The notes: a model not told the origin generated them from the letters alone. 64,000 nt of DNA from Candidatus Daviesbacteria bacterium (GCA_016176465.1 JACOXD010000003.1:1824-65823), one strand, 5' to 3'; shown: positions 42,142 to 58,631, counted from the first letter of the stretch. A program made the numbers and translations.

Positions 42142-43159
42142 GGTAAAAATAATCTATCTTCATTGCAATTTTTACTTCCTTCATAGTTTTTTCTGCCTCT
42201 GCTATTGCTTTTTTTGTACCTTCCTTTAAGATTTTTTCTATTAAATGAGGTTGATTCTCATACTCTTTTCTTTTTTCCCTAATGGGATCTAAAAAATTAT
42301 TTAATACTTTTACTAAGTATTGTTTTACCTCCACATCCCCTACTTTACCCTCTTTGTACCTAGATTTAAAATCATCTAGCTTATGTTTATCAGTCTCAGT
42401 GGTAAAAGCATCTAAATAAATAAAGACAGGGTTTCCCTCAACAGTTCCTAGATCTGTTGGTTTAATCCTTTTGGGGTCTGTATACATATCCATTACTTTT
42501 TTTTCAACCTCTTCAGAAGAATCAGCTAAAAAAATTGCATTATTTAACGATTTACTCATTTTAGCTTGGCCATCAGTACCAACTAAGCGGGGAAAATCTC
42601 CAACTAAAGGCTCTGGTTCCACTAAAATCTGCCCATAAATACTATTAAATTTACGGACAATTTCTCTTGTTTGCTCAATCATTGGTACTTGATCTGCTCC
42701 AACGGGTACTAAATCTGCTTTGCAAAAAGTAATATCAGCAGCTTGGGATACAGGGTAAGCTAAAAACCCTAAAGTTACATTTTCTTCGATCCCTTTTTGT
42801 TTCATCTCCTCTTTAACTGTGGGGTTTCTATATAACCTAGCAACTGTTACTAAGTTCATATAAAAAACAGTTAATTCTGCAATTTGGGGAATTTGGGATT
42901 GGATAAAAATTGTGGTTTTTTGAGGATCAATACCTACAGATAAATAGTCTAAGGTAACTTCTTTAATAGAATCCCTTACTTTTTGGGGATTATCAAAGTT
43001 ATCAGTTAGAGCTTGAACATCTGCAAGCATTACAAACTGATCATATTCATCTTGCAGCTTGACTCTATTTTTTAATGAACCAACAAAGTGGCCCAAATGC
43101 AGCCTTCCTGTTGGCCTATCACCAGTTAGGATTCTCTTCATACTTATGTAGAATATCAC
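42125..43159 (-). CDS. trpS: tryptophanyl-tRNA synthetase
   Basis: HIGH-type motif TGDRPTGRLHLGHFVG and KMSKS. Confidence 0.9.
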   Translation of the reverse strand: MIFYISMKRILTGDRPTGRLHLGHFVGSLKNRVKLQDEYDQFVMLADVQALTDNFDNPQKVRDSIKEVTLDYLSVGIDPQKTTIFIQSQIPQIAELTVFYMNLVTVARLYRNPTVKEEMKQKGIEENVTLGFLAYPVSQAADITFCKADLVPVGADQVPMIEQTREIVRKFNSIYGQILVEPEPLVGDFPRLVGTDGQAKMSKSLNNAIFLADSSEEVEKKVMDMYTDPKRIKPTDLGTVEGNPVFIYLDAFTTETDKHKLDDFKSRYKEGKVGDVEVKQYLVKVLNNFLDPIREKRKEYENQPHLIEKILKEGTKKAIAEAEKTMKEVKIAMKIDYFYHDKHQ

Positions 43160-43867: not shown

Positions 43868-44566
43868 TTAGGGTGAACTTATGGGGCTAGCAGTATTGTT
43901 AAGGTAATGAGCACAAAGCCCAGGTGTTCTGGCAATAATAAACACTGCATTAGCTAACTTTGCTTCCCAGCCAAAGCTACAAAGTACAACAGCAATAGCT
44001 GCATCTATATTAGCAGGCAAAGTTATCCCTTTTTGAGCTTTAAGCTCTGCTTCTAAATCTTTAGCTACTTTAATAAATTCCCCACCAAGTCCTGCTTCCT
44101 CAAGCTTTTTAAAAATTAGCTGGGTCCTAGGATCAGCCTCTTTGTAAACTCTATGCCCAAACCCAGGCATCCTTTTCCCCTCTTTTAAATATTCTTCTAC
44201 CAAATTTCCTATTTCGTATTTCGTATTTCGTATTTTATATAGAATCTCCATACAAGGTTCTATTGCACCCCCATGAGACTCATTTATCTGTAAAATCCCA
44301 GCTGCAATAGCCTCAGATAAAGTTTTTCCATCTTTTGCAGCATTAACTGTTGCTACTCCAGATGGAGAGTTTGGACCATGATCTATAGAAAGATTTAAAA
44401 TAAGCTCAAATATTTTTTCTTCCTGCTTAGAAGGAGTTTTTTCTGATAAAAGTTCAAAAATTAGTGAGGCAAAGCTTCTCTGCTGAGAGATCTCCAAATG
44501 ATTTTCTTCCCCAAACAATGCGGGTTTGCTTTCATCATTATCTTGATGTGTTATTGTCCTAGCCAT
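43868..44566 (-). CDS. truncated citrate-synthase-fold protein (citryl-CoA lyase-like module)
   Basis: Citrate synthase signature MPGFGHRVYK and GPNSPSGVA. At 232 aa it is about half a citrate synthase, like the ATP-citrate-lyase CCL module. Confidence 0.6.
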   Translation of the reverse strand: MARTITHQDNDESKPALFGEENHLEISQQRSFASLIFELLSEKTPSKQEEKIFELILNLSIDHGPNSPSGVATVNAAKDGKTLSEAIAAGILQINESHGGAIEPCMEILYKIRNTKYEIGNLVEEYLKEGKRMPGFGHRVYKEADPRTQLIFKKLEEAGLGGEFIKVAKDLEAELKAQKGITLPANIDAAIAVVLCSFGWEAKLANAVFIIARTPGLCAHYLNNTASPISSP

Positions 44567-45460
44567 TTATAATGCTCCTTTCACTAAACTTGCTATTTGA
44601 TCAAAATCATCAGCTACTAAAACTCCTGCATCTTTTAAAATTTGCCTTTTTATATCTGGTTTCCCTCTATCCCCTTCAATTATTGCTCCTGCGTGTCCAA
44701 ATTGTACATCAGATGGCAAGCGTTCTGTAAATTCCCCACCAATATATGCAACCACAGGCTTTTTAATTTTACCCTGTTTTTTTAAGATACTTACTCTCTC
44801 CTCATAAGTTCCACCTAATTCACCAAAAATAACAGAGGCTTTTGTTTTAGGATCATCTTCAAGGGCCAACAAAAAGTCCCCAAAGTCAGTGCCAATTATC
44901 CTATCTCCACCAATCCCAACAGCCCAAGATATACCTAAACCATGGTTTTTTAAATGAATCCCAATTTCAGATGTCATCCCTCCTGATTTAGAAATAATAG
45001 CTACTTCTCCATCTATAAATGCTCTCTCAGGAGTTGCACCTCCAATTGAGCCTATCTTTATTTTTCTACTTGGACAAATCATCCCAACTGAGCTTGGGCC
45101 AACTAAGCTAATTCCATTTTTTTTAGCTAAAGCATAGATATAAGATTCATCCTTAGTAGGGACTTTTTCTGTAACAATGAGTATAAATTTTACTCCAGCC
45201 TCTATTGCCTCTACTGCTGCACCTTTTACAAAAAGAGGTGGTACATAAAGGACTGTTCCATCAATTTCCCCCACAACTTCTTTGGCTTCTCCAACTGAAT
45301 TAAAAACTGGTAAACCTAAGATTTCTTGTCCACCTTTTCTAGGAGTTACCCCAGCCATAACTTTTGTTCCATAATCAAGCATGGTTGGTAAGGCAGTAGA
45401 CCCTTCAGAACCTGTAATACCTTGACCAATAATTTTTGCTCCCTCTGGTAAAAGTAACAT
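44567..45460 (-). CDS. succinyl-CoA synthetase alpha-like subunit (CoA-binding, phospho-His)
   Basis: GITGSEGS (CoA-binding Gly loop) and the phosphohistidine loop QFGHAGAII. Confidence 0.8.
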   Translation of the reverse strand: MLLLPEGAKIIGQGITGSEGSTALPTMLDYGTKVMAGVTPRKGGQEILGLPVFNSVGEAKEVVGEIDGTVLYVPPLFVKGAAVEAIEAGVKFILIVTEKVPTKDESYIYALAKKNGISLVGPSSVGMICPSRKIKIGSIGGATPERAFIDGEVAIISKSGGMTSEIGIHLKNHGLGISWAVGIGGDRIIGTDFGDFLLALEDDPKTKASVIFGELGGTYEERVSILKKQGKIKKPVVAYIGGEFTERLPSDVQFGHAGAIIEGDRGKPDIKRQILKDAGVLVADDFDQIASLVKGAL

Positions 45461-46095
45461 TATTTAACAACCTCCTGTGCTTGTATACTGTAAAGTTGAG
45501 AAGGCTTTTTTTCTGGATATTTTTCTAAGTACTTCTTAACTATATTGAAACCTAAAGTATAACCAGTCCATTTAGGAATGTTTCTATCCCCCATTCCAAA
45601 AAACCATTCGTTATGATCGTATTCTTTTGTAAATTCCTTTTTAGCTAACTCACTAAACTTTTGTAGTTGTTTTTCAGTTAATGCTAAGTCCCATTTTTCT
45701 GGTTCGCCATCTAAATATTCCATTTCAAAATGGTCTGCCAAACCTTCGCTTACAAGAGCTTCAAGTAAAGTCTTACCATACCCAGGATTTTGCCAGCGAA
45801 TTGCATGATGAAGTTCATGTGCAAGAATTCTAGGCAAATTTTTAGCAATAGAGTTATTAATATTAGGGAATTTGGGATCTAAATAAAGATTAATAAGATA
45901 AGTGTTTTGAGCATATCCTCCAATTCCTAGATGTTCTATCGCTCCCAATGGATTGTCTTCAACAATAACGTCTAAATCAGGCAAAGGAAGTAATTGTACA
46001 ACTTCACTTTTAACTTTTTTTATAATTTCTTCAATTTTTTTTGAGAATGGAATTAATCTACCGCTAGCTTTTAATATATAGATTCCTCCGTTCAT
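45460..46095 (-). CDS. HExxH-motif protein (DUF2268-like putative Zn hydrolase)
   Basis: The only motif is LAHELHHAIRW. It sits between the SucC-like and SucD-like genes with a start/stop overlap. Confidence 0.4.
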   Translation of the reverse strand: MNGGIYILKASGRLIPFSKKIEEIIKKVKSEVVQLLPLPDLDVIVEDNPLGAIEHLGIGGYAQNTYLINLYLDPKFPNINNSIAKNLPRILAHELHHAIRWQNPGYGKTLLEALVSEGLADHFEMEYLDGEPEKWDLALTEKQLQKFSELAKKEFTKEYDHNEWFFGMGDRNIPKWTGYTLGFNIVKKYLEKYPEKKPSQLYSIQAQEVVK

Positions 46096-47306
46096 AAATT
46101 TTTCCTTTGGGCATATTCTTTAGCTAAATCAACTATTACTTTTGCACTCTCAGCTATAGATGTTTCTTGACCATAAAGGTGCAAATCAAAATCTTTTACT
46201 TTTTTTAACATCTCAAATGCTTCCTCGTCCCTTGGTCCTCCTCTTCTTATCACAATAGGATAATCAGGTTTTGAAGTAATTTTTCTTAATGCGTCTAAAA
46301 ATCCAGATAAAGTTTCATAGATATCTGTAAAGTTAGCTACTCCTCCAACTACCCATAATCCATTTAAATTAGGCTTAGAAAGTACAATTTGAGTTAATTT
46401 TTCCACCTTCTCTTTGGGAGGATTGCCAGAGTACTCTGTATAGTTTGCAGGCTTTCCACCTATTTTAAATAAAGCATCCATTGCAGTTAAGGATGCCCCA
46501 CCACCTGAAGCTAAAACTGCTATATCACCATCAAAATCAAAATAAGTTGAACCTGCTACTCCTCTATAATCTTCTTCATCTATTTTTTTAGCTTCAATTT
46601 CTCTATCTGATGGAGTATAACCTGGGACTGCTCGAGGTGGATACTGTTGCCACTCCTCATGTCTTTTGATAGCACTATCATCTAATTTTATCTTTGCATC
46701 TAGTGCTACCCAACCATTTTTTGTTTTAACCAAAGGATTAATCTCTAAAAGTAAACAATCTTGTTCAAAAAAAAGGTTAATCAGCTTTTCTAAGATGTCA
46801 TTCTGAACCCTTCGCTTCGCTCGAGGGTAAACTCCGTGAAGAATCTCTAAGTTGGATCCTTCGCTTTCGCTCAGGATGACAGATTGAGTAATTGGATCTA
46901 CCGGAAAACTTTTTACTCCTCTTTCTTCTATTCCTATCCCTCCTTTATTGGAAATATTTAACACAGGTCCCCTTGTATCAGTATCATAAGAAAGAGAAAC
47001 ATAGTATTCCTTTGCTATATCTACTTTTTCTTCTACCAACACCTTCTCAACTTTTTCTTTATTGATTACTTTACTAAAAAGATCCTTTAAACTAGACGCT
47101 ACACCCTCTATGCTATCCTCTACTATTATTCCTCCTGCATCTGCTCTTTTTCCTGATAGCACTTGGGCTTTTAAAACTACTTCTCCTGTCATTCTGAGGG
47201 CGAAGCCTGAAGAATCTAAATCAGAGGATTCAATAAGTTGGAAGTTGGGAATATTTATCCCAGCATCTTTAAGTAGTTTTTTCCCCTCATATTCATAAAG
47301 AATCAT
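46092..47306 (-). CDS. succinyl-CoA synthetase beta / ACL-beta-like ATP-grasp subunit with two in-frame palindromic inserts
   Basis: MILYEYEGKKLL (ATP-grasp N-terminus), LLEINPL, GGGASL...PANYTEYSGNP. Confidence 0.75.
   Translation of the reverse strand: MILYEYEGKKLLKDAGINIPNFQLIESSDLDSSGFALRMTGEVVLKAQVLSGKRADAGGIIVEDSIEGVASSLKDLFSKVINKEKVEKVLVEEKVDIAKEYYVSLSYDTDTRGPVLNISNKGGIGIEERGVKSFPVDPITQSVILSESEGSNLEILHGVYPRAKRRVQNDILEKLINLFFEQDCLLLEINPLVKTKNGWVALDAKIKLDDSAIKRHEEWQQYPPRAVPGYTPSDREIEAKKIDEEDYRGVAGSTYFDFDGDIAVLASGGGASLTAMDALFKIGGKPANYTEYSGNPPKEKVEKLTQIVLSKPNLNGLWVVGGVANFTDIYETLSGFLDALRKITSKPDYPIVIRRGGPRDEEAFEMLKKVKDFDLHLYGQETSIAESAKVIVDLAKEYAQRKNL
46797..46880. repeat. composite palindromic repeat element (28 codons) in the sucC-like gene
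   Basis: gtcattctgaacccttcgcttcgctcgagggtaaactccgtgaagaatctctaagttggatccttcgctttcgctcaggatgac. Terminal inverted repeats gtcattctga / tcaggatgac. It encodes SVILSESEGSNLEILHGVYPRAKRRVQN. Confidence 0.65.
47188..47216. repeat. short palindromic repeat unit in the sucC-like gene
   Basis: gtcattctgagggcgaagcctgaagaatc is the same unit as the tatD copy gtcattctgagtgaaacgaagaatc. It encodes (L)DSSGFALRMT. Confidence 0.55.
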
Positions 47307-47351
47307 GGGTATATATTAGGGTAATAGGTTATAGGTAGCAAGTAATAGATG

Positions 47352-47423
47352 TGGCAGCGACAGGGATCGGACCTGTGACCTAAGCTTTATGAGGGCTCCG
47401 CTCTACCACTGAGCTACGCTGCC
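47352..47423 (-). tRNA. tRNA-Met (anticodon CAU), elongator-type (could instead be Ile2/lysidine)
   Basis: Hand-folded cloverleaf. Acceptor GGCAGCG/CGCUGCC is perfect. D-arm GCUC-AGUGGUA-GAGC. Anticodon loop CUCAUAA. T-loop UCCGAUC is atypical. Confidence 0.65.
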
Positions 47424-47463
47424 ATTCATTTGAATTTTAGCACAATTTGAGGCTAAAAGATAT

Positions 47464-47790
47464 TTAAGAAGGCTTAACTGCTTGTTCTTTTTGATATTCT
47501 TGTAAAAACCCTTCTGCAAAATTATCAAAAAATTTTAATGCTTCCTGATCTGGATCTTTATTTGTTCTTAATTTATATCTTTTTCTTATCTCCTCATTAG
47601 CCTGCCTTTGATCAATGCATTTTTCAATTGCTTTAAAATCCTCATCAGTAAATGAAAGCATAGCTTCAGAGTAAAGTTTAGAAAAAGAAGTGCTGGTTAA
47701 ATCTTGGGTAAACTCTACAATTTGTGAATCACTGTAACCTTTTTCTTTTAAAACAGCTATTACTTGCTGATACTTAGTTGATTGATCCAT
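47464..47790 (-). CDS. hypothetical protein
   Basis: 108-aa acidic, helical ORF immediately downstream of the 648-aa gene. Confidence 0.4.
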   Translation of the reverse strand: MDQSTKYQQVIAVLKEKGYSDSQIVEFTQDLTSTSFSKLYSEAMLSFTDEDFKAIEKCIDQRQANEEIRKRYKLRTNKDPDQEALKFFDNFAEGFLQEYQKEQAVKPS

Positions 47791-47792
47791 AA

Positions 47793-49739
47793 TTACTTTA
47801 CTCTCAAAGCTGCTTCTTTTGCTTTTAGATAGGCTTCCCAGACTGCATTGACTTTACCTGGATGTACTAACTTGATTTGGTCATTTACCATAATATAATG
47901 ATTCGCTTCTATTAATTTTTTCATTGCTGCGTGAGCCACTACTGGATCAGAGCTTTGTGATTGCTCCACCAACTGATCCAAGTTGTTAATATCTACTGGA
48001 AAATGCGCTCCCTCTGGTAAATGCCCTGCCTCTGCCATCGCTCCCCAATTGTCAATGAAAGTATCTTTATTGGCAAGGATATGTACAGCAAAAGTTTTAG
48101 CATCCTGCGGCCCCCAAGTTATATTATGCCCATGATCTATCAAGATTTGTCCCATGGTATTCCCTTGATGAACTTCTACTATATTGCCCATTTCTGGATG
48201 AGCATCGAAATCTGTAATTTCATTTATCTTGTTCAATATCAAATGCTGTTGGTATAAGTAATCCCTTAAAGCCTCCTTCGCAGTGTCCTGAAGGTGTTGG
48301 GAATAGAATGAGTCTGGAGATTTTAACTTATTTTCTAGGTACTCCTTACCTAAACTTTTTATTTCTTCAAAATTATCAAGATCGGGATTAGATGTATCCT
48401 CAGCTGCCTGTATAAGGTTTGCTCCAGCACTAGCTCTTAACTGCCCATAAGTATCCTGCCAGATTTGAGAGTAAGCTTCATTAGAGATTTGATCTGGAAC
48501 CATTCCTTTGGCTCTAATAGTTTCATCAACTATTTTATTAACTGTCTGAAAATTAGCCCTAGCTAACTCATCTTTTGCCTGAGCAAATTCAGGACTTTTA
48601 ATCATTTCTTTAACTGCTTCTGTTTCCGATGGAGTAAGAGCATCTTTATCTGGGTCAATAAGAGCTCCTGAGGTACCCACATTCTCATCTACTGGAGCAC
48701 CTTGGCCTACTACTTCATGAGGTTCGCTTATACCACTTCCTAACCTGCCTAAACTTTCCCTAACGCTAATTTGAGTTTCAGGAGCAGCGGGCACGGGTTC
48801 TGGAACATTAGGAAATTTAGGTGTTTCAGCCAATTCCCTTATAGGAGTAGTCACTGGAGTTGGTGTACCTTCAATAGTTGGTGTGGTTGGAGGAGTAGCA
48901 CTTTCAGTAGGAACTGGAGTTTCTACAGTAGTCGGAGTACTTTCAGGAGTTGGTGTATTCTCCAAAGCTTCTGCAGTAACAGTATCTGTAGGTTCTGGTG
49001 TGAGAGTAGCTGGCACTGTAGCAGTTGATGTAGCTTCAGGGGAAGGAGTGGCCTCTGGGGTAGGGGTTGCATCAGCAACAGTCTCAGAACTAGACCCTAT
49101 TGAACGAATGCTTCTTAATAAATTTCCTCCACTGTCCATTACATTTTGAAGTACATTACCAGGAGAAGGGAGGGAAACTTTTGGTAGTCTTTCTGCTGCG
49201 ACAGCCAAATTAATTCTAGAGATATACTCACTAATAGGAACACTTAAACCCATCTCAGCACTAATCTCTGGAGCAACAGCTGCAAAAACTCCCTCAATTG
49301 AAACTAAAGCAGCTCCTGCTGAAACTCCCAAAGCAAATTCTTTTAGATGGTGTGCAACTTTAGGATGGCTACTCTCAAGTACGCTTATCTTACTTAACAC
49401 TCCTCTTTCGCTTGCAAATACTGCTCCACTTAAAGCAAGCCTAAGACCAGTTCTTGCCAAAGGACTACCATTAAGCAAAACGCCACTCCCTACTCCAATG
49501 CCATATCCCACTCCCCAGGAATACCTACCTTCAGTAAATACTTTACGGGGAGCATCTAGAGGATTTGCATTTTGGGCCCATTTACCTAAACCTCTAGCAA
49601 AAGCTTTGCCAATACCGGCTGCAGAAATTCCTCTTCTTTCTGCTATAGGATTTTGGGCGGCATTTTCTGCTTCTATTTGGGCTGCAAAATTACCCCAGTC
49701 ATCTGCTCCTGGATTTGGCGCTTCTGCTGTTCTTGCCAT
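47793..49739 (-). CDS. large hypothetical protein with a Thr/Pro-rich low-complexity linker
   Basis: 648 aa. Gly-rich hydrophobic N-terminal region (GVGYGIGVGSGVLL...), a central (TPxPE)n linker, and a C-terminal domain with an HQGNTMGQILIDHGHNITWG motif of unknown function. Confidence 0.5.
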   Translation of the reverse strand: MARTAEAPNPGADDWGNFAAQIEAENAAQNPIAERRGISAAGIGKAFARGLGKWAQNANPLDAPRKVFTEGRYSWGVGYGIGVGSGVLLNGSPLARTGLRLALSGAVFASERGVLSKISVLESSHPKVAHHLKEFALGVSAGAALVSIEGVFAAVAPEISAEMGLSVPISEYISRINLAVAAERLPKVSLPSPGNVLQNVMDSGGNLLRSIRSIGSSSETVADATPTPEATPSPEATSTATVPATLTPEPTDTVTAEALENTPTPESTPTTVETPVPTESATPPTTPTIEGTPTPVTTPIRELAETPKFPNVPEPVPAAPETQISVRESLGRLGSGISEPHEVVGQGAPVDENVGTSGALIDPDKDALTPSETEAVKEMIKSPEFAQAKDELARANFQTVNKIVDETIRAKGMVPDQISNEAYSQIWQDTYGQLRASAGANLIQAAEDTSNPDLDNFEEIKSLGKEYLENKLKSPDSFYSQHLQDTAKEALRDYLYQQHLILNKINEITDFDAHPEMGNIVEVHQGNTMGQILIDHGHNITWGPQDAKTFAVHILANKDTFIDNWGAMAEAGHLPEGAHFPVDINNLDQLVEQSQSSDPVVAHAAMKKLIEANHYIMVNDQIKLVHPGKVNAVWEAYLKAKEAALRVK

Positions 49740-49789
49740 AATTTGCTTCCTATCTATAAATTACTATATACTAATGATACAGTATTCAT

Positions 49790-52700
49790 ATGGCTATGGC
49801 AAATGAAACCCAACATGAAGGAGAAAGTATTCAACCTCCTGTGTTTACAGAGGTGATGAGTAGTATCGGTGAAAAAATTAGTGCAGGGATTACTGATCAA
49901 AATGCTGCTTCTTTATTAAAAGATGTGTTAAATTTAGATCAAACTTTTCTACCTAATGGCAATAAAGCTACAACCAATGAAAAAGTACTAGCAAGAATAA
50001 GAGAGCCTCTATCTGGAAACCCAAGTGTTTTAAAAGAATTGGGAAAAAGGGGCTCAACAGCTATCTCTCTTGATCAATTGAGGCAAGTTGTTCGTCTTGC
50101 TGAAATTTTAGATATTAAAAATTTAGATGAATATCCCGGATTACTTGCAGCAATTAAAAGAGATATTGCTAGGGAGGAGTCTGCTCAAACTTCTCCTTCC
50201 CAAGCACATAAAGCAGCTATTCCCATTACCCCAGCTGAACCAGTTGTTACTTCTGCTTCTGAATTAAAACTAGAAGAATATTTATTACAAGAACTATTTA
50301 GGGAAGCTGCTCAACAAATAACAGAAAATGGTAGAGCAGAAATTCCTGCAAGTACTAAAATGCTTGGATGGTTAGTAGATGGAGCCTTAACAAGAGCTCT
50401 TGAAGAAAGAAGTATCCAACTTAGAGAACACTATGTTGATGCTTTTATTTTAGATCCTAAAACCCCTGGATTAATAAGATTTCAAACTAATATAGAGATG
50501 CAGAAACCTAATAAAATCATCAATTTAGATTTCGATGCCGTGATATCAGGAGCAAACTTAAGCGCAATATATTTCGTAAGTGATAAGGTAAGACAAGGAG
50601 TGCTTAGTAGAATAGCTAAACCATTTTTTAAAGACAGGTTTACAGAAGAACAGGAAATAAAGGAGATGCTTAGAACTAGGAAAGAAGCAAGAGCAAGTGG
50701 CGAAACTCCTCCCCTTCATAAAATTGTAGAATACTATCTTGCTTATCAATTCCAAAATTTGGGAGTAAAATTTGCTGGTTTGCAACTTAGGTGGGAAGGC
50801 CGACAATTAAAACTAATTTTTCAAGGCTCTGATTTATCTTCTACTATAGATGTCCCTGCTGATAGAGGTTCAACTAGGTTGGGGATCCCAGAAGATGGTT
50901 CTAGGGTTGTATTAGCTGATGCTACATCCCCTGAAGCAATATCTTCTCCTGCAGAAGAGGTTGAAGTGATTCCAGAAAATGTTAGAAAAATTATTGAGGA
51001 TTTAAGGAGTGCATACAAGGCTTATAATGATGCCTACTCCACTCAACCTGGAACGCAAACAGAGGAAGCCCTAGCAGATGTTCGTACCAAAGAAAGAGAG
51101 CTTAGTGAGGCATTAGGTTTAACAGGTGCTGAAAGTTATAAAGAGGTTGAGCTACTAAAAAAACTAGAATTGGAAGCTAAATATAATGATCTAGCATTAA
51201 CAGACACGAATAGAACATCTACATACCCTAATCCTCACTTAATCCTTGAGCTTTTTTCAGGTGCCCCCAATTACCTACGGCAAGCTGCTGCAGATTACTT
51301 CCAACATGCTAAATTGGCCACTCCTGCGGAGCACAGTGCCCAACTTGAGGAAGATTTAATGAAAATAGAAAAACTAACTAAACAGGCTGCAGTTGATATG
51401 GCCAAAAGAGCTGGTAGAGTGATAGGCGATATACTTTCATGGCGTATGTCAGTAGGACCATCATTTGATTATGACCAGGCCTTACGTAGATCAGACACTA
51501 TTCCCGAGCAGATAATAGCACTTTTTAAAGCTAAAAATAAAGCGGAATATAATAAGCTTAAACCAGCAGTAGATTTACAACAAGCAGTGAATGAGTTTAT
51601 TGATAGCTTAGCCAATCGAGCGCTACTTCGATTAGAATCCACCAATTTTCACTACCGGGATTTAATTGATCCATTTGAGAGTCATCAAGGACACGTTATT
51701 AAACTATTTGGTTGGATTAGAGATTCATATGGAGACCTAAAAACATATCCTCCCGAGTCCGATAATTATAATAATATTAAAAAAGGTATTAGAGCAGATG
51801 AGGAACAAATTTTAAATATCCTAGGTGTTACAATGCACCCTGAATATAGACAGCTTCTGTATGCTCATATAGGAGTTTTGCAGAAAATCTCTGAAGATAC
51901 TCCTCAAGAAAAATCTAATAAAGAACTTAATGATAAGTATACAAAAGCCTTAGAAAATTATAAAAAACTTCTTTTATCTGATAGTCCAAATTTTAAGAAT
52001 GTAGCTAGAGCTTTAAAGGTTGCCAGTATGGCCAGGATGAGAATGGAAAACGAGATGATGGAACGGGCTTTAGCTGCTCCAACACTCCGAGATGAATATA
52101 ATAGTGCTGATGGCGCTCGAAGGGCAGTTTTAGAAGATGAGTTAAGTACTCTTCTAGGATTATCCCCTGAAGATAATGGAAGAAGAATACACGAATTATA
52201 TATGCAATATAAATCTACAATTTTTAAAACTTTTGATCTCTCAGCTGAAATACCAATCCCTCCTGATGATTTTACAGGAAGGTTATTTAAGAAAGACACC
52301 GGAACTACAGATGCCTTTTTCAGATATCAATACATCTCAAAGAATATACTAGCTTTGCAAGCACAAGGAATAGAAGTATCGGATGAAGAATTGGCAGAAT
52401 ATCAAAGGGTTTTAGAAGAGCTAATAAATCTTTTTTATTTTGAAGCTGATGTTTCAGGAAGGCCTATATACTACAAACAAGGTGGGGAGTGGGCTGGTCA
52501 AGATTTAGTTGCAGCTATTGAGGGAGGAGAAAGTGAAGAAATGATCAAAACACTCTACATTAGGAGAAACCAGAGTATGATTAGGTTTTATCAGGAATTA
52601 TTAGATCAATCTACCTCCACAAAAATTAATGAGTACTTAAAAAATTTAGCACATGATGCAGGATTAGAATTTAGAACCTCAAGTATCCCTGGCCAACCAG

Positions 52701-53308
52701 CAAAATTAGTGGAGCTCCCTCCTTTGCCACAGCCCATTGTTGTGCCCCCACAAGCTCCAGCAATCGAACCTGCTCCAGCTGAGAGGAGATTGGATATTGA
52801 TATTGTTAATGTCATCAGCCAACTTGGAAAGCTTTATAAGGGTAAATCTGCAAAAACCTTGGAAGAAAGAGAGCAGCTGGAAGATCAAATTGCCAAATCC
52901 TTTGGGTTTGATGCAGACCGCGGATATCGCTCTTTGGTTGAGACCCTCAAATATCTCACGGACTTAATATCTTCTCGGGGATTAAAATTACCTAAGGCAA
53001 ACGAAGATTTAGGAATAATGTTTGTTACAAATAGAGATGAATATCTATCTTTGTTAGAGCAGGTTATACAGAAATTAGAAAAAAATGAGGATATTAAGCA
53101 AGATATACCACTTTTAGTAGGGGCTTTGCGAGATAGAAATTATGCTTTCCTTGCCAGAGAAATCGACAGATATGAACGTGCACTTCCCCCTGAGGAAAGA
53201 GAAAGGCTAATCACTGCTGGCATACTTCCTACACCAGCCGCAGTTTTATCTGAAAGTGGCTTTGTTCTAGGTAATGCCCACTTAGGTGAGCCTCAATCAG
53301 GAGAATAA
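49790..53308 (+). CDS. very large hypothetical protein (1172 aa), predominantly helical
   Basis: Uninterrupted ORF with no TM segments, signal peptide or catalytic motifs. Divergent from the 648-aa gene. Confidence 0.5.
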   Translation: MAMANETQHEGESIQPPVFTEVMSSIGEKISAGITDQNAASLLKDVLNLDQTFLPNGNKATTNEKVLARIREPLSGNPSVLKELGKRGSTAISLDQLRQVVRLAEILDIKNLDEYPGLLAAIKRDIAREESAQTSPSQAHKAAIPITPAEPVVTSASELKLEEYLLQELFREAAQQITENGRAEIPASTKMLGWLVDGALTRALEERSIQLREHYVDAFILDPKTPGLIRFQTNIEMQKPNKIINLDFDAVISGANLSAIYFVSDKVRQGVLSRIAKPFFKDRFTEEQEIKEMLRTRKEARASGETPPLHKIVEYYLAYQFQNLGVKFAGLQLRWEGRQLKLIFQGSDLSSTIDVPADRGSTRLGIPEDGSRVVLADATSPEAISSPAEEVEVIPENVRKIIEDLRSAYKAYNDAYSTQPGTQTEEALADVRTKERELSEALGLTGAESYKEVELLKKLELEAKYNDLALTDTNRTSTYPNPHLILELFSGAPNYLRQAAADYFQHAKLATPAEHSAQLEEDLMKIEKLTKQAAVDMAKRAGRVIGDILSWRMSVGPSFDYDQALRRSDTIPEQIIALFKAKNKAEYNKLKPAVDLQQAVNEFIDSLANRALLRLESTNFHYRDLIDPFESHQGHVIKLFGWIRDSYGDLKTYPPESDNYNNIKKGIRADEEQILNILGVTMHPEYRQLLYAHIGVLQKISEDTPQEKSNKELNDKYTKALENYKKLLLSDSPNFKNVARALKVASMARMRMENEMMERALAAPTLRDEYNSADGARRAVLEDELSTLLGLSPEDNGRRIHELYMQYKSTIFKTFDLSAEIPIPPDDFTGRLFKKDTGTTDAFFRYQYISKNILALQAQGIEVSDEELAEYQRVLEELINLFYFEADVSGRPIYYKQGGEWAGQDLVAAIEGGESEEMIKTLYIRRNQSMIRFYQELLDQSTSTKINEYLKNLAHDAGLEFRTSSIPGQPAKLVELPPLPQPIVVPPQAPAIEPAPAERRLDIDIVNVISQLGKLYKGKSAKTLEEREQLEDQIAKSFGFDADRGYRSLVETLKYLTDLISSRGLKLPKANEDLGIMFVTNRDEYLSLLEQVIQKLEKNEDIKQDIPLLVGALRDRNYAFLAREIDRYERALPPEERERLITAGILPTPAAVLSESGFVLGNAHLGEPQSGE

Positions 53309-53319
53309 TTAATTTTTTG

Positions 53320-53636
53320 TTGCGGGGGTTGGATTCGAACCAACGACCTCGAGATTATGCCTAGATATCTAGTTAGACTATACCTTCACCCCGATGTTAT
53401 ATATCGGGGGCTCGGCGTTTAATGGGAGTTTATATTCCAAAATATTTGGTACCTTCCATATAAGCAAAGCTTGATGCTTCGCATTAAGTCGTTACGGGGT
53501 CCGATGTTACATCGGACTTCCCACGGTATTATCCTTTAACTTAAGATTTCACCGTTATGAGCCGAGTTATCATTAAAGATTACTCTCTAATGAGCCCAAT
53601 TTTGAGCCTCGCGAGCTACCACTGCTCTACCCCGCG
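53320..53636 (-). tRNA. initiator tRNA-fMet (CAU) interrupted by a group I intron (exon 1 = 53605..53636; exon 2 = 53320..53359)
   Basis: Exon 1 CGCGGGG-UA-GAGC-AGUGGUA-GCUC-G-CGAGG-CU and exon 2 CAUAA-UCUCG-AGGUC-GUUGG-UUCGAAU-CCAAC-CCCCGCA-A fold into a cloverleaf. C1·A72 mismatch (initiator hallmark), U8, canonical T-loop. Confidence 0.65.
53360..53604 (-). other. group I self-splicing intron (~245 nt) in the anticodon loop of tRNA-fMet, between positions 33 and 34
   Basis: 5' exon ends in U. The intron starts CAAAAUUGGGCUC, an IGS-like sequence complementary to exon GAGGCU. P7-like pair GACUUAAUG ... GGUAUAGUC. Hairpins UCCGAUGUAACAUCGGA and CCCCGAUAUAUAACAUCGGGG. Terminal hairpin CUAGAUAUCUAG then omega-G. 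No ORF inside. Confidence 0.6.
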
Positions 53637-53675
53637 GTATAAGCTTTGACAGTATACAGGAATAAGGTATTGTTT

Positions 53676-54032
53676 TCAATAGAAGCCAAATAATTTTAGC
53701 CAGCCCTGCCAATTAGATAGTTTAATTTCTTCTTTCCCTTTATTTAAACTCAAAACCTTTTTCACCTCAGATTCGGGAATTATTACTATAACCTCATTTT
53801 CCTTGGCTAAACCAAGCTTATCGCGAGCCTGCTCCTCAATAAAATCTAACCTTTGGGTATCTTTTAATTTTTCCTTTAATAACCTATTTTCCTGCTGCAG
53901 CCTAACTAAGCGCTCAGTAGTAGTATCAAGCCTATCTCCAGCCTGCAATGCTCCTATAATCTGCCTTCCCAGACTGATTATTACTAAGATTATGAGCAAA
54001 GTTATGACAATAATTACTGCTTTTCTAATCAT
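53676..54032 (-). CDS. septum-formation initiator family protein (FtsB/DivIC-like)
   Basis: Single N-terminal TM, a coiled coil (LQQENRLLKEKL), then the FIEEQARDKLGLAKENEVIV motif. Confidence 0.55.
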   Translation of the reverse strand: MIRKAVIIVITLLIILVIISLGRQIIGALQAGDRLDTTTERLVRLQQENRLLKEKLKDTQRLDFIEEQARDKLGLAKENEVIVIIPESEVKKVLSLNKGKEEIKLSNWQGWLKLFGFY

Positions 54033-54063
54033 CTTTTTACCCTTAAGTTGCTAAACTTGCTGC

Positions 54064-55005
54064 TTGACAATAATATCCTTTTTTAATATTATATGGGATA
54101 ATAGATACATAAGTATGGTTACTCTGCGTGATGCCCATCAACAATTTATTGGCCATTTAAAGGGGCGCTCACGTGCCTCAGCTACTATCTTAGCTTATGG
54201 TAAGGATATTGAGCAACTCGTCTCCTATTTAGTCGAACAAGGCAAACAAAATGCCCAGGATATTATCTTAGAGGATTTGAATGCCTTCATGGCTAAACTC
54301 TCTAAAGAAGGCTATACCGCTAAATCAATCTCCAGGAAGACTAATTCCACAAAAACTTTCTTTAAATTCTTAAAAACTTCTAATTTAATTGAAAATGATC
54401 CAGCCGGCGCACTTGAGCATCCAAAATTTGAGAATAAACCTCCCAGAATTTTATCTAAATTAGAATATCGAGCGCTAAGAGATGCAGCCAGAGGGGATCT
54501 TCGAATTTTTGCCATTATTGAGCTACTTTTGCAAACCGGGATTAGAATTGGAGAACTAGCCCAACTTAGTGTAGATGATTTGGATTTATCCTCTGATTCC
54601 CCCACTCTTCATGTCCCAGAAGGTGAAGGCAGCAATGCCAGAGATATTCCACTTAATAAACCAGCAGTTGAAGCAGTACAAAAGTATTTAGAGGTTAGGC
54701 CTAAAACTCCAAATGATAGAAGCTCATCTTTGACTAAAGCATTATTTGTAACCAAAACAGGAAGGCCCTTACTTGTTAGAAATATAAGAACTGCAATTGA
54801 TAGATACTTTAAGTTAGCAGGGATAAAAGATGCTAAGGTAAATGATTTAAGACATACTTGGGTAGCTCATCATTTAGAGGCTGGCACTTCTTTGACTTTA
54901 ATCTCCAAACTAGCTGGGCATAAAAGAGTTTCTACTACTGAAAGATACCTACAATTTATCCAAAACCGCTCAACTGATAGCAAAGTAAAGCTAGAAGAAC
55001 TCTGA
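54064..55005 (+). CDS. tyrosine-type site-specific recombinase/integrase
   Basis: C-terminal catalytic region LRHTWVAHHLEAGTSLTLISKLAGHKRVSTTERYLQ (R...HxxR...Y), plus an N-terminal SAM-like domain. Confidence 0.8.
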   Translation: MTIISFFNIIWDNRYISMVTLRDAHQQFIGHLKGRSRASATILAYGKDIEQLVSYLVEQGKQNAQDIILEDLNAFMAKLSKEGYTAKSISRKTNSTKTFFKFLKTSNLIENDPAGALEHPKFENKPPRILSKLEYRALRDAARGDLRIFAIIELLLQTGIRIGELAQLSVDDLDLSSDSPTLHVPEGEGSNARDIPLNKPAVEAVQKYLEVRPKTPNDRSSSLTKALFVTKTGRPLLVRNIRTAIDRYFKLAGIKDAKVNDLRHTWVAHHLEAGTSLTLISKLAGHKRVSTTERYLQFIQNRSTDSKVKLEEL

Positions 55006-55107
55006 AATGGAACGCATTATTTGCCCACTTAATCGTAGTGCAGATTGTATACAAGTTCACACCCTCAGGGTGGGTTACGTTCACACCTTACTATACTAAT
55101 ACCCTAC

Positions 55108-55139
55108 TGGCGGACCCGGACTCGATCGAACCAGGAACC
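55108..55139 (-). repeat. degenerate duplicate of the tRNA-Ile 3' half (att-like direct repeat)
   Basis: ggcggacccggactcgatcgaaccaggaacc is near-identical to ggcggacctggactcgaaccaggaacc at 55444..55471, apart from a small internal insertion. It lies 100 bp downstream of the integrase gene. Confidence 0.5.
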
Positions 55140-55157
55140 AACCCTGCACTATAATAA

Positions 55158-55424
55158 CTAAACTGAATAGACTAATGTTCCTGGTTTGGTGGGCTGTGAA
55201 ACTTTTAGACCAAAGGAGTCACCTTTTTTAACAGAGTCTACCTGTTGATGATCAACTTGTAGTGATTCCACATTTTGATTAAACTCTTCCTCTTCCCCTC
55301 TTTTAAACTTTAGCTTATCTCCCACTTTTAATCCTCCAGAATCTAAATCTATAATTGCTACTCCTAATTTGTCATAGTAGTGGGTAACTTTACCTATTTG
55401 TTTATCCAAATTTCTCACCCCCAA
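55158..55424 (-). CDS. small hypothetical protein (beta-barrel-like)
   Basis: 88-aa ORF lying between the tRNA-fragment repeat and the intact tRNA. Confidence 0.3.
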   Translation of the reverse strand: MGVRNLDKQIGKVTHYYDKLGVAIIDLDSGGLKVGDKLKFKRGEEEEFNQNVESLQVDHQQVDSVKKGDSFGLKVSQPTKPGTLVYSV

Positions 55425-55442
55425 TCAAAATAGAGCCTGTTG

Positions 55443-55516
55443 TGGGCGGACCTGGACTCGAACCAGGAACCGGAAATGTATAAGATTTCTGCGCTAACCA
55501 ATTGCGCCATCCGCCC
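55443..55516 (-). tRNA. tRNA-Ile (anticodon UAU)
   Basis: Clean cloverleaf. Acceptor GGGCGGA/UCCGCCC. D-arm GCGC-AAUUGGUUA-GCGC. Anticodon stem GAAAU/AUUUC with loop CUUAUAC (U33, anticodon UAU, A37). T-loop UUCGAGU. A73. Confidence 0.75.
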
Positions 55517-55525
55517 TACCAGGGG

Positions 55526-56230
55526 CTAATTATACCAAAAGATTTCATCTTTAACTCCATAATAATTTGATACAGCTTTTATAGACATAGCTATTTTCTC
55601 ACTTAAATTAACCCTATGCGTATAAATCTGACATGTACCATACCCAAAGCTTTTATATATTAAACCTTCTCTAGTTGAGTCTTTAATATAAGGTCCTCCA
55701 AATTGATTTTTTGGCAAGTTTAAATGGTTTGACCAGAAATTAGTGACTTCTTCAAAATTCATATCTTTATAAATGTGTAGGCGTACTTTTATGGAGTTTT
55801 TTGGAACACCCAAAACCTTAGTCATCCAATATAGCGCAAACTTAATAACTCTTGGGTCCGTATTACTAATCGAGAATCTTCCATGTTTTTTCTCTCCCTC
55901 ACCCCAATACAAAAATACCCCTGCCAAAAAAAGCTCTTTTTTAGACAAAGGTAATAATTCTTTAACTTGTTTTTCAAAAACCTGCTTCAATCTAAATAAT
56001 CGCTTACTCTTGAACGTTTCAATAAACTTTTCTCTTGATAAATCTCTAGATAACATTTTGTTTTTTAGAAGTTTTACCTGTTGAGTTTTGTTTAAAGGAA
56101 GTCTTTTTAACCAATCACTTAATGTACTTTTGGAAACACCTAATTCTTTTTTAATTTGACCATAGGTTTTTCCTCTTAATCGAAGTTTAATCGCCTGCTC
56201 ACGAAGAAATATTTTAGACATCGTACCCAT
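55526..56230 (-). CDS. HTH-domain protein (possible LAGLIDADG-like C-terminal region)
   Basis: N-terminal HTH (YGQIKKELGVSKSTLSDWLKRL). C-terminal FLAGVFLYWGEGEKKHGRF only loosely resembles the LAGLIDADG core. Confidence 0.45.
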   Translation of the reverse strand: MGTMSKIFLREQAIKLRLRGKTYGQIKKELGVSKSTLSDWLKRLPLNKTQQVKLLKNKMLSRDLSREKFIETFKSKRLFRLKQVFEKQVKELLPLSKKELFLAGVFLYWGEGEKKHGRFSISNTDPRVIKFALYWMTKVLGVPKNSIKVRLHIYKDMNFEEVTNFWSNHLNLPKNQFGGPYIKDSTREGLIYKSFGYGTCQIYTHRVNLSEKIAMSIKAVSNYYGVKDEIFWYN

Positions 56231-56267
56231 AGATTGTATCCCCCAAGACAGTCAATGTAAAGTACAA

Positions 56268-58631
56268 TTATAGTTTTGCCCTAGATGCTATCTCTGCCTC
56301 TACTGCTCTTTTATCCCTTCCATAAGTTAACCTGGATAACTCTTTAATTGCCCTTCCCACCTCTGGCCTCATCATGGCATACCAAGCTTTCATATCTTTT
56401 TGAACGTTTAGAGAAAAAGGTGGAATTGGCTCTCCATGAACTTGGGTTTTAACATATAAAGTGTGAGCAGCAATATTAACTAAATCTTGTTCATTAAAAA
56501 TGGGTGCAAATTCATGTTGTAAAAAGTTAGCATCTGTTACACCTACCCTATATGCCATGACAGTTCCAACATTTCCAAAGATAGCATTTTTAATATTTTC
56601 ATCAATTTGTCCAATAAACTGGTTAGCTACTATTAAATTTAATTTATACTTTCTGGCTTCAGATAAAATGGAAGCAAAAGTGTCAGTGGCAAAGTTTTGG
56701 AATTCATCTACATAAAGGTAAAAATCCCGCCTTTTGTTCTCAGGTGTATCAGCCCGAGACATTGCTGTTGCTAAAATCCGAGGAACTAAAACTAATCCCA
56801 AAAAGTTAGAGTTATCCTCACCCATTTTTCCCTTGGATAAATTAACTATCAAGATTTTGCCATCATCCATAATTTTTCGTAAATCAAATGAAGGTTTTGA
56901 TTGACCAATTATATTTCTAATCATCATATTGGTAACAAATTTTCCAAACTTGGAAACAAAATAATCAAGCGTTTCAGATTTGTGAAACTCAGTTGTTTGA
57001 GCTATTTGATCTGTCCAGTATCTTCTAACAATAGGATCTGCTACTAAGGGCAAAATCTCTCTAACAAATTGTGGATCAGTTAGTGCCCTAACAACCTCAA
57101 TTAAAGTCCCACCAGGCATGGACATAACTGTTAAAAGCGAGTTTCGAACAGCATGCTCTAAGCGGGGACCAATAATCCCGGTATGGTTTGGATCATAAAG
57201 TTTATAAAGCAAACCAATGATTGATTCCACCACAAAATGTTTTTGCTGTTCGCTTATATGCTCCAGCATATTCATTCCAAAAGGACGCTCAACATCAGAG
57301 GGGTCCCAATAAACTACATCTTTTGCCCGATTTGGTGGAATTAAATTCAAAAGTTCATCTGCAGCATCACCGTGTGGATCAATAAAAGCCAAACCTTTAT
57401 TAGCTAAAACATCTTGCAAAGCAAGTGATAATAAAAACTGTGATTTACCAACGCCGGTTCTTCCAATAATGTACATATGACGCTGGCGATCGGAATCGGA
57501 AATATAAACCGGACGCTGTGTCCCTCTAAAAATAGACTTACCAAGGTATAGTCCAAACATTGGGATTTTCTCTGAAGCTGGAGCATGCCTGGCCGGAAGC
57601 CAGTAGATAAAGGGGGTTTCAATAGATTTATTTGGAAAATGAAAAATGGAGGCAATTTCATCTGATGTTAAAACAGGCAATTTTGAAAACATTGGCTGAT
57701 ACCGATAGATAAAATCAACCATGAATCCTTTTTCCGATCTAATTTTTGCCCCACTAAACCCATTGTAAGCTCCTGAGAATTGCTCAAAGGCTGAGCGTAT
57801 GTTAGATAAATGAGCTTTAGCAGTATCTTTGCTACTTGAGGAAACTACAATCCTTACTGCTACATTAAACCCAGGCTTAGAGAGTTTATTTTCTACAGCT
57901 TCCAGCTGTTTTTGATCAGGAGGAGCTTTAGGTTTATCTCCTGTTCCAGGATCCTTTTCTTTTTTCAAAAATGATTTACCCGAATCTTTCCAGTTACCCT
58001 CTGCTGGAGAGATCATAATTTGAATAGCGGCTCCCTCACCTGGTTGCATTTTGGCTAAGGCGGAGGTAATCGCGGATAAAGGATCAGTTGGTAATTCCCT
58101 ATATGTTTTAATTGGGAAGTAGTTGGTATTTTTTAGTTTTAACATGGCATAAGCTACTTGACCTTCTTCTGAGAAAATATTGTATTCTTGAACTTCCTTT
58201 ACTTCAGCATCAGGATAAGCTCCATTAATTTGTTTTTCGACTAAATCCTGGTGTTTTTTATGGCAAGCGATGTAAAATTTAATTGATTCATTTAAAGCAA
58301 TAATTTCAAAAGATAAATGCGGTTGGGGTTTTAAAAATCCAAATATTCCCCCGCCTGTTTTTATAGAATAAAAAGTAGCGAGAAGTTGCTCTGCGGCATC
58401 AATTTTTATCTCATTTCCCCTGGGAACCGATATTTGAAGTAAAACAAACTCCAAGGAATCTCTTTCTCTATTTTTATACTTAATCCAACCAATAATTAAA
58501 GGAGATAAAAAATATAAAGCTAAAGCTACACCTGCAAAAATAAATAAGAAAATAAAAATAGATCCCAGTAAGGATAAGAAATCTATGTTAGTAGTGGTGG
58601 TTTGACTTGTAACTGCTCCGGTATATTCCAT
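56268..58631 (-). CDS. TraG/VirD4/TraD-like (AAA_10) membrane-associated ATPase, conjugation-coupling-protein-like
   Basis: Two N-terminal TM helices. Walker A IIGRTGVGKSQFL followed by IDPHGD. Walker B-like LYVDEFQNF. About 787 aa. Confidence 0.55.
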   Translation of the reverse strand: MEYTGAVTSQTTTTNIDFLSLLGSIFIFLFIFAGVALALYFLSPLIIGWIKYKNRERDSLEFVLLQISVPRGNEIKIDAAEQLLATFYSIKTGGGIFGFLKPQPHLSFEIIALNESIKFYIACHKKHQDLVEKQINGAYPDAEVKEVQEYNIFSEEGQVAYAMLKLKNTNYFPIKTYRELPTDPLSAITSALAKMQPGEGAAIQIMISPAEGNWKDSGKSFLKKEKDPGTGDKPKAPPDQKQLEAVENKLSKPGFNVAVRIVVSSSSKDTAKAHLSNIRSAFEQFSGAYNGFSGAKIRSEKGFMVDFIYRYQPMFSKLPVLTSDEIASIFHFPNKSIETPFIYWLPARHAPASEKIPMFGLYLGKSIFRGTQRPVYISDSDRQRHMYIIGRTGVGKSQFLLSLALQDVLANKGLAFIDPHGDAADELLNLIPPNRAKDVVYWDPSDVERPFGMNMLEHISEQQKHFVVESIIGLLYKLYDPNHTGIIGPRLEHAVRNSLLTVMSMPGGTLIEVVRALTDPQFVREILPLVADPIVRRYWTDQIAQTTEFHKSETLDYFVSKFGKFVTNMMIRNIIGQSKPSFDLRKIMDDGKILIVNLSKGKMGEDNSNFLGLVLVPRILATAMSRADTPENKRRDFYLYVDEFQNFATDTFASILSEARKYKLNLIVANQFIGQIDENIKNAIFGNVGTVMAYRVGVTDANFLQHEFAPIFNEQDLVNIAAHTLYVKTQVHGEPIPPFSLNVQKDMKAWYAMMRPEVGRAIKELSRLTYGRDKRAVEAEIASRAKL

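Follow-up and report, generated by a model that had tools for sequence, protein, structure and literature searches.

A possible surface-protein operon beside an unrelated orphan gene between two methionine tRNA genes of a Candidatus Daviesbacteria bacterium

This study deals with a block of three genes, coding for proteins of 108, 648 and 1172 residues, which lies between two methionine tRNA genes in 64,000 nucleotides of DNA from an uncultured Candidatus Daviesbacteria bacterium (GCA_016176465.1, JACOXD010000003.1:1824-65823; the whole stretch is called the window here and positions are counted from its first letter). The best reading of our data, put forward tentatively and with somewhat less than even confidence, is that the block does not represent one system but two unrelated gene sets, namely a surface-protein operon formed by the 648- and 108-residue genes and an orphan gene for the 1172-residue protein. 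This degree of confidence applies to the architecture, and function is rated lower; within this reading, topology, exposure at the surface, contact with the small partner and any functional role are inferred. According to database records, the three genes are carried by a 69.7-kb contig of a member of the Candidate Phyla Radiation (CPR).

The three open reading frames (ORFs) were found where a preliminary description of the region, made from the sequence alone, had placed them (Table 1). They are real genes and not chance frames, since open frames of 648 and 1172 codons stand in DNA of 37-42% G+C and since their G+C content at third codon positions (GC3) and their codon preference equal those of the 52 other ORFs of the window. 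For the three genes, GC3 amounts to 0.17-0.24 (mean of the other ORFs 0.248) and the codon-preference score to 0.18-0.32 (mean 0.205), both within the spread that those ORFs show. The slightly raised G+C content of the block stems from codon positions 1 and 2, and thus from its content of Ala, Pro, Gly and Thr. The composition of the block is native, and the genes are probably long-resident. Two further claims of the preliminary description were confirmed, as the two large genes diverge from a spacer of 50 bp and the 108-residue gene follows the 648-residue gene; it starts 2 nt beyond the stop codon of the latter, on the same strand. The spacer contains an AGGAAG ribosome-binding site ahead of the 648-residue gene, and the NCBI annotation of the 1172-residue gene begins at its second Met.

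The conserved unit is the 648-like gene together with a small downstream gene, and not the divergent pair. This is based on a small helical gene directly downstream in all three loci found and on the lack of a relative of the 1172-residue gene beside the only full-length homologue. The latter (P0003; 695 residues, E 2e-30, 22-28% identity) is located on two overlapping contigs (L001 and L004, ~3.9 kb) and has the identical order of parts, with the N-terminal region (31% identity) and the C-terminal domain (35%) about equally kept. Its end overlaps by 1 nt with the start of a 106-residue gene, the product of which is 53% identical to the 108-residue protein. A pattern scan with the most conserved C-terminal stretch yielded the third member as a C-terminal fragment in three metagenome assemblies (L003, L005, L006), and a 111-residue helical gene follows 2 nt after this fragment. 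In our reading, the 648- and 108-residue genes form an operon with translational coupling, and a few other uncultured bacteria carry it as well. The divergent pair emphasized in the preliminary description did not hold as a conserved unit, because the ~3.9 kb around the P0003 gene carry no relative of the 1172-residue gene. A gene following the pair on these contigs was considered as such a homologue and rejected, as it has no similarity to the 1172-residue protein. Homology of the 111-residue gene product of L003 to the 108-residue protein was also suspected, but comparison of the two (hhalign E 0.23, Smith-Waterman z 0.9) did not bear it out.

Relatives beyond these loci were not detected. 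A word-indexed search of 5.8 billion clusters returned one distant match for the 648-residue protein and only the query itself for the 108-residue protein. Genome scans with the alignments of the 108-residue protein and of the C-terminal domain, a metagenome scan with the former and two scans of viral contigs gave nothing, and a second metagenome scan, with a trimmed C-terminal alignment, gave only the C-terminal fragment named above. By tblastn, neither the 648- and 108-residue proteins against phage records nor the 1172-residue protein against plasmid records found a match. Whole or cut into eight pieces, the three proteins match no entry of Pfam, NCBIfam, PHROGs or PADLOC, and single-protein searches against PDB sequences were negative as well, which agrees with the earlier statement that no motifs are recognisable. 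Readings of two motifs as LysM-like and SAP/HeH-like were dropped, since Pfam gave no match and no SAP protein was among the PDB profile matches. No housekeeping homologue was found and the genes are not conserved core genes, so that the two outcomes named beforehand as speaking against the preliminary interpretation did not occur; the genes are lineage-restricted orphans. CPR genomes are small and yet hold a large share of genes without known function, and lineage-restricted orphans are common in such bacteria.

The 648-residue protein begins with a basic N-terminal region and continues with two to three segments of moderate hydrophobicity and a linker rich in Thr and Pro, after which come a helical middle part and a conserved C-terminal domain. 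Residues 1-134 are basic, with an isoelectric point (pI) of 9.8 and 15 Lys and Arg residues, and beyond the last hydrophobic segment the protein is acidic throughout. Kyte-Doolittle hydropathy reaches maxima of 1.81 (residues 137-155), 1.05 (77-95) and 1.0 (103-121), and the three hydrophobic segments are also present in P0003, where the sequence RRTRTNQRIRN stands immediately ahead of the last one. The Gly-rich hydrophobic N-terminal region that had been described could be recovered as hydrophobic Gly/Ala-rich segments between residues 74 and 160. The (T-P-x-P-E)n linker was borne out in part: the Thr/Pro-rich stretch at residues ~223-365 exists and P0003 has an equivalent linker, but the stretch holds just three imperfect 24-nt copies and Tandem Repeats Finder detected no tandem array in it. 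It is a compositional bias rather than a regular tandem repeat.

Judged from this distribution of hydrophobic and charged residues, the 648-residue protein most likely belongs to the cell envelope, where its N-terminus would be cytoplasmic and its C-terminus external. Following the positive-inside rule, the last segment would run from inside to outside, so that the Thr/Pro stretch and the C-terminal 280 residues would lie outside the cell. Hydropathy and charge distribution agree with this orientation in both homologues, with segments that are only moderately hydrophobic. The P0003 pair is neighboured by a possible glycosidase fragment (assigned by eye, no Pfam match) on one side and a possible LytR-CpsA-Psr (LCP)-like gene on the other. 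In the product of the latter, which follows the pair on L004, an N-terminal region leads into a single hydrophobic segment and a Thr/Pro linker, and then comes the apparent start of an LCP domain. As LCP domains act outside the membrane, we count this gene, with its same plan and possible LCP domain, toward an external C-terminus of the 648-like protein.

The C-terminal domain appears to be new and outside known families, as no Pfam family matches it even at E 10. An alignment of the three sequences (A5) has 28 invariant columns at pairwise identities of 35-50%, and its motifs read G-x-T-x-G-Q-x-L, T-W-G, H-I-x-A-N-x-D and P-x-x-x-x-F-P. The former description as His-rich is correct in number, with nine His in the last 134 residues, but only two of them are invariant in the three homologues, so that nothing points to a metal site built on His. 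The domain also contains an 18-nt tandem duplication (2.2 copies, 47996-48034) encoding EAGHLP/EGAHFP. The equivalent in P0003 reads AGNFPEGMHFP, and hence this duplication is old.

The 108-residue protein is acidic (pI 4.9), lacks a hydrophobic segment and is probably helical. As it has no export signal either, a cytoplasmic location is probable. The sequence at its N-terminus (VIAVLKEKGYSDSQIVEF) could be read as a piece of a helix-turn-helix (HTH), and its faint PHROG matches are a PHROG with no assigned function (E 0.0013) and a Q-like anti-terminator PHROG (E 0.029). These features would suit transmembrane signalling, in which the external domain senses a signal from the wall or the host and the N-terminal region holds and releases the 108-residue protein as a small regulator, in the manner of those anti-sigma factors that combine a Thr/Pro linker with a sensor domain outside the cell. 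The succession of cytoplasmic N-terminal region, anchor, Thr/Pro linker and C-terminal domain, the about equal conservation of both ends between the full-length homologues and the translational coupling of the small gene speak for such a role as well. However, no anti-sigma, sigma-factor (sigma-70) or HTH family matches the 648- or the 108-residue protein, 108 residues are too few for a sigma factor, and the small gene of L003 is not detectably related to the 108-residue protein. We regard signalling as unlikely.

A toxin-immunity or effector-chaperone pair, in which the C-terminal domain of the 648-residue protein is delivered and the 108-residue protein neutralises or chaperones it, is quite improbable. 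All three loci do combine a protein of variable length, ending in a compact conserved domain, with a small acidic gene at a distance of 0-2 nt, and the invariant Gln, Thr, His, Asn and Asp of the domain could be catalytic. Yet neither the whole proteins nor their pieces contain a known secretion, trafficking or toxin domain (Pfam, NCBIfam, PADLOC), and the 648-residue protein appears to be anchored in the membrane and not released. Moreover, the partner does not co-vary with the domain it would have to neutralise, which argues against a toxin-immunity pair: between the window and P0003, the C-terminal domains share 35% identity and the small partners 53%, whereas between P0003 and L003 the domains share 50% and the small partners are not detectably similar. 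It fits better that the partner contacts another part of the 648-residue protein, most simply its conserved basic N-terminal region.

For the surface-protein operon, we accordingly picture an arrangement in which a basic cytoplasmic N-terminal region (~130 residues) would be followed by one or three membrane spans, and an acidic Thr/Pro-rich stalk would carry the helical region and the new C-terminal domain of ~130 residues across the wall to the surface. Inside the cell, the 108-residue protein would probably bind the conserved basic N-terminal part. As a guess, the exposed domain might bind a ligand of the cell wall or of a partner cell for anchoring, adhesion or sensing. The 1172-residue protein would probably be a cytoplasmic, helical protein of several domains that are joined by Pro-rich linkers.

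This picture of the 1172-residue protein is derived from its composition (pI 5.2, no Cys) and from Pro-rich linkers at residues ~130-155, 355-400 and 965-1000, which split it into four parts. No 19-residue window exceeds a Kyte-Doolittle value of 1.4, in agreement with the reported absence of transmembrane segments. Its mostly helical nature is found again in an AlphaFold2 model, in which nearly the whole chain is helical and residues 331-392 form a short stretch rich in strands, but this single-sequence model is of low confidence, with a mean predicted local distance difference test score (pLDDT) of 38.3. The word-indexed search of the 5.8 billion clusters retrieved only the protein itself, as did phmmer when run in full against 1.84 billion cluster representatives, and neither the whole protein nor its five pieces matched a family or a PDB entry. 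As far as these searches reach, the protein is a singleton orphan without detectable relatives, and its gene is not a conserved core gene. There is also no mutual similarity between the 648- and the 1172-residue proteins.

Within the 1172-residue protein, a motif of ~20 residues, E-x-[EQ]-[LI]-x3-[LF]-G-[LVF]-[TSD], occurs in four copies. A motif search without a preset pattern led to the same four sites at widths of 12 and 20 (z = 4.85 at width 20, 40 shuffles). Self-BLAST and pairwise Smith-Waterman comparisons found no internal repeats, and only the four-way motif search revealed them.

Table 1. Positions of the three-gene block, its parts and other features of the window
Feature	Position	Strand	Basis or accession	Remark
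108-residue ORF	47464-47790	-	NCBI HYS91_00640	small partner gene of the 648-residue gene
648-residue ORF	47793-49739	-	HYS91_00645, MBI2011252.1	
Conserved C-terminal domain	47796-48197	-	three-sequence alignment A5	residues 515-648 (~130 residues)
Acidic Thr/Pro/Glu-rich low-complexity linker	48645-49073	-	translation	residues ~223-365, pI 4.05
Presumed membrane anchor	49260-49520	-	Kyte-Doolittle	residues 74-160, hydrophobic, Gly/Ala-rich
Divergent intergenic spacer	49740-49789			50 bp, between the 648- and 1172-residue genes
1172-residue ORF	49790-53308	+	NCBI HYS91_00650	
Motif copy 1	51089-51148	+	motif search	residues 434-453
Motif copy 2	51797-51856	+	motif search	residues 670-689
Motif copy 3	52130-52189	+	motif search	residues 781-800
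Motif copy 4	52877-52936	+	motif search	residues 1030-1049
Elongator-type tRNA-Met(CAT)	47351-47423	-	ARAGORN; Rfam RF00005	64.3 bits
Initiator tRNA-fMet gene, intron-split	53321-53636	-	sequence reading, Rfam RF00028, in-silico splicing and ARAGORN	
tRNA-fMet 5' exon	53605-53636	-		
tRNA-fMet group I intron (predicted)	53360-53604	-		245 nt, between U33 and C34 (anticodon loop)
tRNA-fMet 3' exon	53321-53359	-		
XerC/D-like tyrosine recombinase	54064-55005		XerC and XerD models	172 and 166 bits, under equivalog cut-offs
tRNA-Ile(TAT)	55442-55516	-	ARAGORN	
Protein with dockerin type I domain	1407-2627	+		
DUF6242 protein	3223-5961	+		912 residues
ATP-dependent DNA ligase	18447-20186	-		N-terminal, adenylation and C-terminal domains
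Fic/DOC protein	20807-21883	-		

Several points weigh against the reading as a surface-protein operon beside an orphan. The hydrophobic segments of the 648-residue protein reach no more than moderate values (Kyte-Doolittle 1.0-1.8), and Glu occurs in two of them; two spans, rather than one or three, would leave the C-terminus in the cytoplasm. The LCP call on L004 is a below-threshold match to PF03816 (E 0.037) in a domain that is cut by the contig end. No similarity of the 111-residue gene product of L003 to the 108-residue protein could be detected, and the small partners may therefore belong to more than one family. The word and pattern prefilters of the searches for homologues of the 648- and 108-residue proteins missed even the 53%-identical 106-residue protein, and therefore further members of the family may have escaped detection. 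Neither structure model can be used (the 648-residue protein, from a two-sequence alignment, has a mean pLDDT of 38.7 and the 1172-residue protein one of 38.3), and they allow no structural inference; Foldseek comparison of the two with the PDB gave no match below E 0.02, and the matches are meaningless given the quality of the models. Finally, pairwise alignments of the four motif regions of the 1172-residue protein are not significant, and no Pfam HTH model matches this protein.

With regard to the surroundings, one flank of the block codes for an ATP-grasp/citrate-binding protein, a subunit of a coenzyme A (CoA) ligase, a citrate-synthase-like protein, a Trp/Tyr-type tRNA synthetase and FtsH, and the other for DivIC/FtsB, the XerC/D-like recombinase and thioredoxin-reductase-like enzymes; DNA polymerase I, a DNA ligase and RecF are found at greater distance. 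The genes around the block are chromosomal housekeeping genes. The "integrase island" placed next to the block turned out to be an overstatement, as it comes down to the single XerC/D-like recombinase, which is separated from the block by tRNA-fMet and the DivIC/FtsB gene. None of the three block proteins matches a recombinase or integrase in Pfam or NCBIfam. No repeat of either methionine tRNA was found within 46800-56500, and the borders of the block carry no att-like repeat. Look-ups of exact proteins of the flanking genes, aimed at strains without the block, gave only short contigs identical to the window.

These results bear on a view built on the preliminary description, according to which the 648- and 1172-residue genes are co-regulated from their shared spacer and form an accessory effector, scaffold or host-interaction system gained at a tRNA hotspot. 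Promoter-like hexamers do overlap on both strands of the 50-bp spacer, tRNA genes stand on both sides of the block and both large proteins are lineage-restricted. On the other hand, such hexamers are no more frequent than in shuffled sequence, and a 1172-type gene is absent beside the only 648 homologue with known flanks. The location in an accessory island could not be upheld either, given a block without integrase, att-like repeat or tRNA-end repeat, with native GC3 and codon usage and with housekeeping neighbours. We consider this view very improbable. The least probable of all explanations considered here is that the three genes, host-like in composition, are cargo of a degraded integrative element or prophage between tRNA genes: the recombinase, a tRNA-Ile with a partly duplicated 3' end, a transposase-like HTH protein and a TraD/VirD4-like ATPase lie nearby and the genes have few or no relatives elsewhere, but all these mobile-type elements are outside the block, beyond tRNA-fMet and DivIC, border repeats are missing, GC3 and codon usage are native, and there is no phage or plasmid tblastn match, no PHROG below E 0.001 and no viral-contig match.

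The bracketing of the block by tRNA-Met and tRNA-fMet, on the contrary, proved real, because the second gene is split by a predicted group I intron and yields a valid initiator tRNA once its exons are joined. The elongator-type tRNA-Met(CAT) lies 40 nt downstream of the 108-residue gene on the same strand, and the tRNA-fMet gene ends 12 nt past the stop codon of the 1172-residue gene. At first sight the latter gene is absent, since ARAGORN and Rfam at its gathering threshold reported only tRNA-Met and tRNA-Ile; the 245-nt intron that splits the gene accounts for this. Reading of 53280-54080 gave two tRNA halves on the minus strand that are parted by an insertion, and in E-value mode Rfam produced a full-length match of this insertion to RF00028 (group I intron; 41.8 bits, E 2.5e-9, under the gathering score of 50). 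A U precedes the 5' splice site and the last intron base is a G. Splicing in silico resulted in a canonical 72-nt tRNA-Met(CAT) according to ARAGORN, with a C1xA72 mismatch, which is typical of bacterial initiator tRNAs. Covariance-model match, U, terminal G and valid joined tRNA together agree with a group I intron, whose splicing is a prediction. This intron-split initiator tRNA gene is the most concrete by-product of our analysis, as standard tRNA and Rfam scans overlook such a gene.

Two short contigs touch the same site. One (L007), from another run of the same series (SRR12113424), is 100% identical to window positions 53603-55386 and ends at 53603, that is, at the exon/intron junction plus the two bases 'CA' that the intron start and the start of the 3' exon have in common. 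The other (L008, SRR12113420) likewise ends 73 bp beyond DivIC according to its gene table. These contig ends would fit co-occurring intron-containing and intron-less alleles, or repeated sequence, and are suggestive only.

Next to the recombinase, the 3' end of tRNA-Ile, with T arm and acceptor, recurs as a partial copy of ~30 nt, which is located 332 nt downstream of this tRNA on the minus strand (within 55100-55145). The duplicated ends at 55126-55139 and 55458-55471 are the sole tRNA-end duplication and lie outside the block. This looks like an integration scar that does not touch the three block genes. Between tRNA-Ile and its partial copy, an 88-residue ORF (55158-55424, minus strand) matches EF-Tu domain 2 weakly (E 2e-4). 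In most bacteria, AUA is decoded by a CAU tRNA that carries lysidine, and a tRNA-Ile with the anticodon UAU is uncommon, so the UAU anticodon found here may bear on AUA decoding in this lineage. On the other side of tRNA-Ile, 55526-58631 (minus strand) codes for a 234-residue protein with a transposase-like N-terminal HTH and then for a 787-residue TraD/VirD4/HerA-like ATPase, which may form a coupling-protein or DNA-translocation module; past the ATPase stand two proteins without Pfam or PADLOC match (58632-59108 and 59151-59957).

On the opposite flank, 43868-47306 (minus strand) holds a cluster that resembles ATP-citrate lyase or citryl-CoA synthetase. Its genes code for an ATP-grasp and citrate-binding protein (404 residues), a CoA-binding ligase subunit (297 residues), a protein with a citrate-synthase C-terminal domain (232 residues) and, inside the cluster, a putative DUF2268 Zn-protease. 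A cluster of this type represents unexpected central carbon metabolism in a small CPR genome. The class I aminoacyl-tRNA synthetase of Trp/Tyr type is encoded at 42125-43159 (minus strand). Archaeal-type identities of TyrRS and TrpRS have been reported for some CPR bacteria in a paper that also mentions Daviesbacteria (PMC5370408). The more distant dockerin, DUF6242, DNA ligase and Fic/DOC genes are listed in Table 1.

What can be drawn from the block is mainly a pointer, as the present evidence assigns no function. To our knowledge, the means by which CPR cells attach to and live off partner cells are largely unclear, and a conserved operon coding for a surface protein that bears a new terminal domain would be a reasonable candidate for the interface between CPR and partner. 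The gene for the 1172-residue protein, for its part, is a clear-cut case of a large orphan. The effector, scaffold or host-interaction role once proposed is a guess, and the one feature with which it would agree is that the 648-residue protein is probably exposed at the surface. A further-reaching interpretation, which we hold to be doubtful, would see in the 648/108 operon the first example of an envelope module, with the new surface domain on its stalk joined across the membrane to the small cytoplasmic partner, by which uncultured, probably episymbiotic bacteria attach to or sense a host cell or its wall, and in the 1172-residue protein a large protein that has newly arisen or evolves extremely fast and has four HTH-like modules.

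In comparison with known systems, the 245-nt intron has counterparts in the group I introns of bacterial tRNA anticodon loops, the position it takes in the flanking tRNA-fMet. Such introns are known from cyanobacterial tRNA-fMet and tRNA-Leu(UAA). The intron differs in its 41.8 bits, below the gathering score, and with respect to the block it belongs to the flanking tRNA and not to the proteins. For CPR bacteria, insertions in rRNA genes have been described and tRNA introns are not mentioned (PMC11270868).

The four-copy motif of the 1172-residue protein is reminiscent of HTH modules, where helix 2, turn and helix 3 show the pattern E-L-x-x-x-L-G-L-S/T with a helix after it. Among PDB entries, a profile of the motif matched 8vd6 ('CAP REPEAT') and 8tac ('DBP48') best, which we take to be HTH-derived designed proteins; these matches run over the HTH-turn-like E-[IL]-A-x-x-L-G-[LV]-S. 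Each single match is weak, though, and four copies in 1172 residues are unlike any known HTH protein family, so that the resemblance may serve as a lead only. The same applies to a possible resemblance of the C-terminal domain of the 648-residue protein to the mannan-binding lectin MVL of Microcystis viridis (PDB 1zhq), a weak, non-significant profile match with a whole-sequence E of 0.033. A 32-residue stretch (W-G-x-x-D-A ... I-A-A-N ... W) aligns to both MVL repeats, both Trp included; however, the two stretches reach E values of 22 and 40, Pfam gives no match and the remaining domain is without counterpart.

For the 648-residue protein as a whole, the closest parallels are LCP (LytR-CpsA-Psr) enzymes and RsgI-type anti-sigma factors. 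There is no sequence relationship to either, the C-terminal domain is apparently new, and the gene has no sigma factor beside it but is paired with one for a small acidic protein. What the 648-residue protein shares with them is the order of N-terminal region, presumed anchor, Thr/Pro linker and C-terminal domain, and membrane-anchored surface proteins with a Thr/Pro stalk in Gram-positive-type envelopes form a class by architecture and not a sequence family.

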